This document shows, in pieces, positions 21,151 through 22,084 of a stretch of DNA of 35,108 nt (position 1 is the first letter of the stretch; each line of letters opens with the position of its first letter). The notes below the pieces were generated by a model. It worked only from the letters and a program-made list of their open reading frames with translations. It made no database searches and had not been told where the DNA came from. The position numbers and the translations under genes are program-made. The stretch comes from Coprobacillus sp. (lineage in GTDB: Bacteria; Bacillota_I; Bacilli_A; RFN20; CAG-826): contig JAJQAP010000034.1 of NCBI GenBank assembly GCA_021203745.1, positions 4,317 through 39,424 on the forward strand. The letters run 5' to 3'.

Positions 21151-21180
21151 AAAAGAGTCTCCTAATTGGGGACTTTTTTT
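21151..21180. terminator. Bidirectional intrinsic terminator
   Basis: AAAAGAGTCTCC-TAATT-GGGGACTTTTTTT: stem with T-rich tails on both strands, between nrnA (+) and the minus-strand RNA/toxin unit. Confidence 0.8.
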
Positions 21181-21182
21181 AT

Positions 21183-21250
21183 GATGGTAATTTATTAACC
21201 GCTGCACCATCAACGCGGGCTACTTCTCGTCTCCTTATCTCTAAGGATTG
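21183..21250 (-). ncRNA. Putative CptI-like antitoxin RNA, downstream copy (GNRA hairpin + H-type pseudoknot)
   Basis: Minus strand UCCUUA-GAGA-UAAGGA, then AGC-CCGC-GUU-GAUGGU-GCA-GCGG-UUAAUAAAUU-ACCAUC. Own promoter TTGATA(21283-21278)-16-TAAAAT(21261-21256) with TGn; terminator follows immediately. Confidence 0.65.
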
Positions 21251-21291
21251 TTATTATTTTAACATAAGCAAGAAAAATATCAACAAAAATA

Positions 21292-21813
21292 TTACTTTAA
21301 TTTCCTATCCAACAAAATTTTCTCTAATCTATTTATATCGGGTTGAGTGCTCACAAATTTAAATCCATTTTTAAGCAAAGAAATCACTTCTCTTGCTTGA
21401 TTGACAATTGTTTGGGTCTCATATTCGTCAAAAGTAAAAGGTCCATGATTAATTAAATAATATCGAACAATATAATCTCGTGAAACTGGAAACATATCTT
21501 GAAACAATAGGACACTCTCTCTATCAGCATAATGAACAATCTTCATACCTAGCATGAATTTGCTGAGTATTTCCTTTGCATCGCTCCTTGAACTATTTGT
21601 CCATTTATAAAACGTTTTTCTATAATACCTTTTATATTTATCCACTTTACTGGAAAGCGGTATCATCCAATATAAGTCAGTAGATGAATCATAAATAGCA
21701 AGGTAGTATGGTCTCAAACCACCTGGATGATTTTTAACTAGATATGGGTCGTTAACATCGATGAAAAACTGATCACTAATGACATATAAATAACCTGTAA
21801 CTAATTTTAACAA
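21292..21813 (-). CDS. cptN: Type III toxin-antitoxin toxin, CptN-like endoribonuclease
   Basis: Y.ISDQFF...DPYL..N....RPYYLA..D....LYWMIPLSSKV.KY, ESVLL.QDMFPV...YI.R.Y, G.KF..TQPD match CptN-family motifs; RBS AAGGAGG (21830-21824) before TTG start. Confidence 0.85.
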   Translation of the reverse strand: MLKLVTGYLYVISDQFFIDVNDPYLVKNHPGGLRPYYLAIYDSSTDLYWMIPLSSKVDKYKRYYRKTFYKWTNSSRSDAKEILSKFMLGMKIVHYADRESVLLFQDMFPVSRDYIVRYYLINHGPFTFDEYETQTIVNQAREVISLLKNGFKFVSTQPDINRLEKILLDRKLK

Positions 21814-21921
21814 TATGTTTTTGCCTCCTTATGGTTAAGAGAAATAAAAAACTCCTCTATTTACTATAAGTAGCAGGGTAAAGCAAAAAACTTCCGAAAA
21901 TTTTTTAAAAATTAGAAAAAA

Positions 21922-21988
21922 GATGGTAACTTATTAACCGCTGCACCATCAACGCGGGCTGCTTAACTCCCCTTATTTCTAAGGATTA
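21922..21988 (-). ncRNA. Putative CptI-like antitoxin RNA, upstream copy (GNRA hairpin + H-type pseudoknot)
   Basis: Minus strand UCCUUA-GAAA-UAAGGG, then the same pseudoknot core; promoter TTGACT(22021-22016)-16-TACACT(21999-21994) with TGn. Confidence 0.7.
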
Positions 21989-22084
21989 TCTATAGTGTAC
22001 CATAAACTAGTCACAAGTCAAGAGTGGGCTTCCCCTTTCTTGTTTTCTCTTTATAAATACCTTTATAAAGAATATACTAAAAGT

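Follow-up and report, generated by a model that had tools for sequence, protein, structure and literature searches.

Toxin-antitoxin (TA) systems of type III like ToxIN, AbiQ-antiQ and TenpIN pair an endoribonuclease toxin with a pseudoknot RNA, which is processed by the toxin and in turn inhibits it. According to the accessible portions of previous studies, to which the statements on published CptIN work in this text also refer, every type III locus is built alike, from a single promoter through tandem repeats and a terminator to the toxin gene, and type III surveys accepted only loci in which a terminator and tandem repeats stood in front of the toxin. The canonical CptIN loci follow this order, with 1.9-3.4 tandem repeats of 40-48 nt at the 33 cptIN loci reported (Blower 2012 Table 2; review). 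CptN is a ribonuclease: after cutting the CptI precursor it remains attached to the 45-nt product, the two forming a 2:2 complex. This product ends 3' in an adenosine 2',3'-cyclic phosphate, and in the solved CptI, an H-type pseudoknot of 45 nt, L1 is very short and L2 is long and A-rich. A single repeat has been reported to be sufficient for toxIN and cptIN, one CptI repeat being enough to inhibit the toxin, and single-repeat CptI constructs were given 5'-GA and 3'-AAG for processing. The locus described here lies in a 35,108-nt stretch of a Coprobacillus sp. genome (GenBank assembly GCA_021203745.1, contig JAJQAP010000034.1, positions 4,317 to 39,424), hereafter called the window, and is, with high confidence, a CptIN cassette whose toxin gene is flanked by CptI monomers. 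The genome (G000) is a metagenome-assembled genome (MAG) of 0.96 Mb (92 contigs, 81% complete), which possesses three CptN paralogues and one weak match.

The toxin encoded in the window belongs to the CptN family of type III toxins. An earlier note on this DNA, made from the sequence alone, had called the protein CptN-like and proposed a profile search, which bore out the assignment: NF047359 (CptIN family toxin) matched over its whole length (profile 1-150/150) with an E-value of 8.1e-34 and 116.6 bits, above the curated cut-off of 90 bits, and a profile built from the window protein and four relatives matched chain A of PDB 4RMO, the CptN of Eubacterium rectale (CptN Er), at E 8.6e-36. No matching model for the toxin was found in Pfam or PADLOC, and a control search of 14 well-known genomes for the CptN family gave no match (0/14). 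The open reading frame (ORF) begins with TTG, 10 nt downstream of AAGGAGG, and ends with TAA (21294-21292). Active-site residues described for CptN Er are the triad Ser-Ser/Thr-Arg, Tyr104, Asp81 and Ser85, of which Asp81 and Ser85 are said to specify the scissile adenine (Rao 2015). The HMM alignment to 4RMO and the family alignments show that the PLSS(K/R) motif and the Tyr104 equivalent are kept in the window toxin, the latter being invariant across the aligned toxins, and that the window toxin carries an insertion of ~12 residues relative to CptN Er. The Ser85 equivalent is also kept in the window toxin, and is replaced by Gly or Cys in the toxins of three related loci, namely L004 and L005 of the same genome and L010 of a congener (G002); at the Asp81 equivalent, Asn or Gly is aligned in these three toxins, in a gapped region where the mapping is uncertain. 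A link between a U-run at the 3' tail of the RNA units and the loss of Asp81/Ser85 in L004, L005 and L010 was considered and dropped, because the alignment is gapped there and the toxin of a canonical locus, L007, also lacks an aligned Asp.

Two direct-repeat units flank cptN on its coding (-) strand, one upstream (22021-21915) and one downstream (21283-21150), within a cassette of ~870 nt located between an nrnA-like gene and dnaE (Table 1). The repeat search aligned a 43-nt core at 95% identity (21183-21225 vs 21922-21964) and the adjoining 54-nt promoter/hairpin part at 70% identity (21230-21283 vs 21968-22021), with the copies spaced 738/739 nt apart. Most of the architecture proposed in the earlier note stood up to inspection: both units are near-identical and lie on the strand of cptN; each shows a -35 element, a 16-nt spacer and a TG-extended -10 element, read in the sequence and also picked up by the promoter scan; each has a 6-bp hairpin with a GNRA loop (GAAA vs GAGA), in which the closing pair changes from U.G to U-A, followed by an H-type pseudoknot with the same S1 and S2 and an AU-rich loop; and the downstream -35 element begins 8 nt past the cptN stop, the unit itself ending at a terminator. 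The linker between hairpin and S1, given as 9-10 nt in that note, measures 12 nt in the upstream unit and 13 nt in the downstream unit, and six bases separate the -10 hexamer from the hairpin in both. Between the upstream unit and cptN there is a U-run only and no hairpin terminator, and the sequence read revealed no terminator between the cptN stop and the downstream unit. Tandem Repeats Finder (TRF) detected no tandem pseudoknot array at the window locus, just a trivial 12-nt x2 repeat, and the canonical arrangement of an upstream tandem array, one promoter and a Rho-independent terminator before the toxin is not found there.

Table 1. Coordinates of the cptIN cassette and of related features. 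Positions refer to the window, except for the paralogous leaders, whose positions refer to their own loci.
Feature	Position	Strand	Evidence
Upstream unit promoter: TTGACT (22021-22016), 16-nt spacer ending TGG, TACACT (21999-21994)	21994-22021	-	Sequence; promoter scan, with TG
Upstream CptI-like RNA	21915-21987	-	Covariance model R1, 59.3 bits, E 6e-12; S1/S2 covariation
Upstream 5' hairpin UCCUUA-GAAA-UAAGGG, closed by U.G	21985-21970	-	Sequence
Upstream pseudoknot: S1 CCGC/GCGG, S2 GAUGGU/ACCAUC, 10-nt AU-rich loop, then U6	21957-21922	-	Sequence
cptN leader, ending in the ribosome-binding site (RBS) AAGGAGG	21814-21914 (21814-21921 in the comparison of leaders)	-	Alignment A7 of four leaders
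cptN, 173-aa type III toxin (endoribonuclease family)	21292-21813	-	NCBIfam NF047359; 4RMO profile match
Downstream unit promoter: TTGATA (21283-21278), 16-nt spacer ending TGT, TAAAAT (21261-21256)	21256-21283	-	Promoter scan, 10/12 matches, with TG
Downstream CptI-like RNA, ~100 nt	21150-21249	-	R1, 54 bits, E 1.5e-10
Downstream 5' hairpin UCCUUA-GAGA-UAAGGA, closed by U-A	21247-21232	-	Sequence
Downstream pseudoknot: S1 CCGC/GCGG, S2 GAUGGU/ACCAUC, 10-nt AU-rich loop, then AUAAAAAAAG A-rich tail	21218-21183	-	Sequence
Bidirectional terminator hairpin, common to the downstream unit and the convergent nrnA-like gene	~21179-21151		Sequence
nrnA-like DHH gene	20130-21137	+	Neighbour of the cassette
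Paralogous leader, L004	1355-1473		
Paralogous leader, L005	2008-2112		
Paralogous leader, L010	2002-2122		

The flanking RNAs are homologous to canonical CptI and contain a covarying pseudoknot. A covariance model (R1) built from 11 units of the window's genus (window, L004, L005 and L010) gave full-length matches, running from the -10 box through hairpin and first pseudoknot, at the 5' end of canonical CptI arrays upstream of cptN genes from Lachnospiraceae, Faecalibacterium, Clostridia and other MAGs. The covariation of cptN flanks, a test suggested in the earlier note, was counted over 24 distinct sequences, with S1 added by hand as a second bracket type: 95.5% of the pseudoknot cells were paired, compared with 32-41% when the 3' partners were slid by 1-3 columns, and compensatory changes on both sides occurred in 8 of the 11 pseudoknot pairs. 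The covariation score was 0.537 against 0.196 +/- 0.022 for shuffled alignments, none of 500 shuffles reaching the observed value; all six pairs of S2 covary, as do the two outer pairs of S1, while its two inner pairs are invariant. The window units also agree with CptI, known as an H-type pseudoknot of ~45 nt with a short L1 and a long A-rich loop: their own loop is AU-rich and 10 nt long, and they align with canonical CptI. For the same region, no Rfam family came near its gathering score; the 12 weak matches lay far below threshold, and several of them were terminator look-alikes.

Within the window genome, the motif is confined to the surroundings of cptN. A BLAST search of the window's repeat against the 0.96-Mb genome returned two occurrences only, and R1 gave six matches at E <=1 (150 of 621 candidates scored), all six adjoining the three cptN genes. 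The same motif scattered over the genome independently of cptN, which the earlier note had named as an outcome that would overturn its claim, was thus not observed. A broader model (R2) was run on 41 related genomes and found matches in G000 (six), in G002 (six, all at its two cptN loci) and in G024 (one) only. CptN itself is patchily distributed, occurring in 4/41 of these relatives by a family model, in 13/401 genomes of the order and in 14/399 of the class.

The non-tandem layout recurs in diverged paralogues. Like the window, with one upstream and one downstream unit, L005 has units on both sides of its toxin gene (two upstream, 120 nt apart, and one downstream), and all three pseudoknot sequences differ from those of the window; L004 has a single downstream unit, just the xseB terminator and the leader being found upstream; and L010 has three upstream units, one of them partly masked, and two downstream units. 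No tandem array was detected at L005, L004 or L010: all units at the dispersed-type loci of the genus are monomers, and a downstream unit is present at 4/4 of them. The four toxins are 34-44% identical to each other, which indicates that the dispersed layout has persisted through long divergence. Alignment A3 puts the -10 boxes of all 11 units in register, equally far from the hairpin and with hardly a change in sequence, while the spacer and the hairpin vary. TG stands before the -10 box of both window units, of the single L004 unit and of the four readable L010 units; at L010, the promoter scan also located a TTGAC(A/G) or TTGATA -35 element for each of these. A 5' hairpin of at least 5 bp is present in nine of the ten readable units, mostly with GNRA loops on quite different stem sequences, and a U-run directly follows S2 in 10 of the 11. 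At L010, a strong terminator precedes the leader. The congener G002 also holds a canonical locus, L007, in which a single promoter and a hairpin are followed by two 45-nt pseudoknots in tandem and by a terminator.

The pseudoknot cores are far better conserved within a locus than the sequences next to them. In the window, the upstream and downstream cores agree at 35/36 positions and the 5' parts (-10 box, hairpin and linker) at 23/39, in line with the earlier statement that the flanks had diverged while the structure was kept; the corresponding values are 35/36 and 19/37 at L005, and 34/36 and 22-23/38 at L010. Within-locus identity is thus 94-97% for the cores and 51-61% for the 5' parts, and the cores of different loci are 57-83% identical. 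A core that is near-fixed and locus-specific while its flanks drift is the pattern expected of the cognate antitoxin of the adjacent toxin, and CptN toxins were reported to be neutralised by their cognate CptI only (Rao 2015). From this comparison, both copies look selected, although gene conversion limited to the core may be an alternative cause of the core identity.

Compared with the CptIN system of E. rectale (4RMO; Blower 2012, Rao 2015), the window cassette has the same toxin family and the same kind of antitoxin, an H-type pseudoknot whose S1 is GC-only (CCGC/GCGG), whose S2 varies and whose long loop is A-rich, and in both the RNA is paired with its toxin within the locus and the core sequences are locus-specific. 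Many canonical CptIN arrays also carry a 5' hairpin and a -10 box before their first pseudoknot, as the window units do. Unlike canonical CptIN, the window has single pseudoknots, each with promoter-like elements, on both sides of the toxin (downstream only at L004), and a conserved leader of ~100 nt before the toxin gene; moreover, the pseudoknots of the window's genus are mostly followed by a U-run, in place of the A-rich inter-repeat spacer of canonical CptIN repeats. ToxIN, AbiQ-antiQ and TenpIN differ further, since they have other toxin families and their repeats are tandem or adjacent, upstream, and under a common promoter. Among TA systems of other types, the layout resembles the reverse-order type II pairs HigBA and HicAB, cited in a review as exceptions to the usual TA order, in which the antitoxin gene lies downstream of the toxin and may have its own promoter; type II systems also occur with extra or orphan antitoxin copies, as the CptI units do. 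The likeness concerns gene layout only, because HigBA and HicAB have protein antitoxins with another neutralisation mechanism. In the non-canonical type III system AvcID, the RNA antitoxin is likewise not a tandem repeat array, but its toxin and RNA are unrelated to those of the window. The AvcID toxin is a deoxycytidylate deaminase.

The earlier note did not recognise the architecture as described, which agrees with the published statement of type III loci as one promoter, tandem repeats, terminator and toxin. In the accessible portions of PMC3401426, PMC4627078, PMC5086642, PMC12283969 and PMC13682666, and in the openly searchable literature, downstream or separately promoted type III antitoxin monomers are not described, and the supplementary locus tables of Blower 2012 may hold exceptions. 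The window locus would therefore represent a CptIN variant with dispersed, separately promoted monomer antitoxin genes, new with respect to the described type III layout. An anti-phage role, also proposed in the earlier note, has no support so far for the CptIN family: cloned cptIN loci gave E. coli no protection from the coliphages tested (Blower 2012; Rao 2015, >200 phages), and stabilised plasmids.

On the sequence evidence, it is probable that the cassette uses two single-pseudoknot CptI genes flanking the toxin, and not a tandem array, as its antitoxin, and we lean, a little less firmly, towards both units being independently transcribed, working antitoxin genes. Each unit would be a small RNA (sRNA) gene of ~75-100 nt, transcribed alone from a strong extended -10 promoter, while less toxin would be produced, from transcripts that read through the U-run or that start in the conserved leader. 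The 5' hairpin may stabilise or protect the primary transcript. CptN is predicted to trim the linker at an A^AG-like step ~6 nt before S1 (21964/21963 upstream, 21225/21224 downstream), a position placed by analogy with the GA^AAG context of the E. rectale RNA, and the resulting pseudoknot would hold CptN inactive, as in the solved 2:2 complex. Antitoxin excess would then come from two genes and from promoter strength, not from the number of repeats per transcript. Since no terminator lies between cptN and the downstream unit, the downstream pseudoknot should also sit on the cptN mRNA, where it would form the 3' end and supply one antidote per toxin message. When transcription stops, the labile RNA would decay and CptN would be freed. 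In ToxIN, phage-induced shut-off of host transcription is said to be the trigger. The U-run after S2 in most units of the genus may serve as a terminator. More tentatively, toxin and antitoxin may be transcriptionally uncoupled altogether, the antitoxin being supplied by scattered stand-alone monomer sRNA genes, in which a pseudoknot and U-run double as terminator; the antitoxin 3' end would then be made by termination and not by toxin cleavage, and the downstream gene alone could suffice, as at L004, which would be a toxin-first type III locus.

Several observations weigh against the reading of both units as separately transcribed, working antitoxin genes. The starts, ends and independence of the two units are deduced from consensus promoters, and promoter-like sites in this AT-rich region are not enriched (8 vs 5.3 +/- 2.4 in shuffles). 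The window copies differ at the 3' tail (U6 vs AUAAAAAAAG), and no conserved 3' processing site is evident. An exception to the conservation of the cores is the distal upstream copy of L005, which shares 72-75% identity with the two others, has a broken or weakened S1 and may be decaying. In the window clade, Lys (PLSSK in the window) takes the place of Arg as third residue of the Ser-Ser/Thr-Arg triad. The alignment behind the covariation count was fitted to S2 by the model, S1 lying outside it, and nested minimum free energy (MFE) folding of four units was no better than that of shuffles (z -0.28 to -1.94, the two window units giving these two extremes), by a method that is unable to form or score pseudoknots; the fold obtained for the window units was the hairpin plus either S1 or S2. 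Support for the RNA structure is accordingly comparative, not thermodynamic. Finally, in most loci from beyond the window's genus, the arrays are confined to the upstream side.

The main rival explanation is that the downstream unit is a relic: a cptIN module was duplicated in tandem, the second toxin was lost, and the upstream unit alone serves the remaining one. The starting point of such a course exists in G103, whose locus L037 (1180-2260) has two complete canonical cptIN modules in tandem; both modules are separately promoted and lack the 5' hairpin, and each contains two to three tandem pseudoknots with differing S1 and S2. Later states may be recognised in toxinless units, which also count against a working downstream unit in the window: an orphan canonical array (promoter, hairpin, two pseudoknots and terminator) without cptN in G024 (L094, 1480-1680), next to which come first a short ORF and then rpsL; a full second array on the downstream side of cptN, itself followed by no toxin (L083, 2030-2350); and a truncated pseudoknot remnant downstream of the toxin (L088), the last two belonging to another family of the same class. 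Loss of the toxin before the antitoxin would also be the only viable order of decay. In the same family, L080 carries one further monomer unit (1044-1137), standing alone upstream of its array, and at L086 two pseudoknots form an array upstream while a single unit, composed of promoter, hairpin, pseudoknot and terminator and seen by eye (R1 E 0.23), lies downstream. The states of L080, L083, L086, L088 and G103 indicate that separately promoted extra CptI units near cptN arise repeatedly, probably when the module, or just its promoter and antitoxin, is duplicated and the toxin is then lost; some of these units decay. Such an origin is likely for the window as well, yet present function does not follow from it. 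Neutral decay does not fit a downstream core that matches the upstream one at all but one position beside a 5' part of 59% identity, and the same pattern is seen at L005 and L010; the downstream promoter, hairpin and terminator are intact; and at L004, where the only unit is the downstream one, the toxin would be left without a local antitoxin. We therefore consider it unlikely that the downstream unit is a mere relic.

Much less probable is that the downstream pseudoknot has no promoter of its own and belongs to the 3' untranslated region (UTR) of the cptN mRNA, from which CptN cleavage would release it, the hexamers being chance matches in AT-rich DNA. The distance of 8 nt from the cptN stop with no terminator between, the lack of enrichment of promoter-like sites and the two of three L005 units that fall below the promoter-scan threshold would all suit this explanation. 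It is opposed by the -10 box, which keeps its place relative to the hairpin in 11/11 units amid varying spacers and hairpins, stands at the same place in upstream units and canonical arrays, and is repeatedly extended by TG (both window units, the L004 unit and 4/4 readable L010 units); besides, transcription from an own promoter and supply from the mRNA may operate together. That the repeats are no antitoxins at all, but cis-regulatory sequences or the ends of a mobile element (attachment or recombination repeats), is highly improbable, even though the cassette occupies a variable insertion site and unrelated repeats flank other cptN-like loci (the palindrome at L059-L062 and the distal 36-nt repeat at L007, both described below). 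The repeats align and covary like canonical CptI, which is upstream-only in most loci, their copy numbers vary (0+1, 1+1, 2+1 and 3+2), each has promoter and terminator features, and no recombinase gene adjoins the cassette. Working, separately transcribed antitoxin genes on both sides of cptN remain the preferred reading.

If this reading is correct, the ToxN/CptN class can, as the present loci suggest, also work with single-repeat RNA genes that are promoted separately, some of them lying behind the toxin, and it would be promoter strength and gene number, instead of terminator read-through, that fix the ratio of antitoxin to toxin. The 5' hairpin together with the U-run would provide a natural minimal antitoxin gene for study, and three insulated paralogues in a genome of ~1 Mb would be a compact natural set for RNA-protein specificity. 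Because its antitoxin copies are single and non-tandem, the window locus would be missed by repeat-based searches, and surveys based on tandem repeats would undercount type III systems, especially in small-genome gut Bacillota.

The wider occurrence of the layout was surveyed with R2 at E <=0.1 on the window and 68 further loci (69 sources in all, near-duplicates included). There were 49 matches in 40 of the 69 sources, all on the strand of the toxin, and matches downstream of the toxin were limited to the window, L004, L005, L010 (two matches) and L083. The idea that the dispersed layout is widespread among cptN loci was rejected, as downstream R2 matches occur in few loci only. A flank-repeat survey evaluated 50 loci (55 minus 5 without flank) and found strong upstream/downstream repeats (z >10) in ten, namely the window, L005 and L010, where the repeats are the pseudoknot units, L037, where they are the tandem modules, L059-L062, L007 and L017; those of L007, 36 nt long, and L017 are distal and not pseudoknots. 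Among 15 further loci, strong flanking repeats were present in L083 and L086. The repeat of L059-L062, four metagenome contigs, is a GC-rich palindromic element of ~100-120 nt, unrelated to the pseudoknot, which brackets a distant cptN-like gene at ~290-390 nt on the upstream side and 3-123 nt on the downstream side.

The cptN leader, of ~100 nt, contains the blocks UUCGGAAGUUUUU and ACCCUGCUAC, conserved in the window and the three paralogous loci; in the four dispersed-type loci, its order is an AT-rich block, UU(C/U)GGAAGUUUUU and ACCC(C/U)GCUA. At its start, the leader looks like a CptI repeat in its 5' tail and S1 strand; it may be the vestige of part of such a repeat, with a site for CptN cleavage, or else the promoter of the toxin. 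The promoter scan detected no sigma-70-like toxin promoter in the leaders of the window, L004 and L005, and one weak candidate directly after the terminator in the L010 leader. The weak CptN-like match of the window genome (L006, contig C38, 2803-3081; E 4.6e-4, 19 bits) lies within a 365-aa open frame and is probably unrelated.

On the other side of the cassette from the nrnA-like gene, the dnaE ORF as listed starts at GTG 21995 and overlaps the promoter of the upstream unit on the opposite strand. The dnaE orthologue of G001 starts at the residue matching M31, and the window dnaE therefore probably starts at 22085, which leaves a short divergent promoter region. The nrnA/dnaE site was compared between the window (20130-22085), L072 (3003-3652), L075 (2224-3524) and L076 (2396-2480). 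In G003 it comprises ~100 nt with a terminator only, in G001 a RelB/YafQ type II pair (PF04221 E 1.8e-6, PF15738 E 1.8e-33), and in G002 a RelB/YafQ pair together with a DUF6088-like gene. These varying contents across congeners mark nrnA/dnaE as a TA insertion spot in the genus, which fits the identification of the window cassette as CptIN.

Finally, an identical CptI leader and pseudoknot were found in L017 (1820-1902) and L020 (1820-1902), which come from MAGs of differently named taxa, Candidatus Anaerobutyricum avicola and Candidatus Ventrenecus stercoripullorum, suggesting a recent transfer or a binning artefact.

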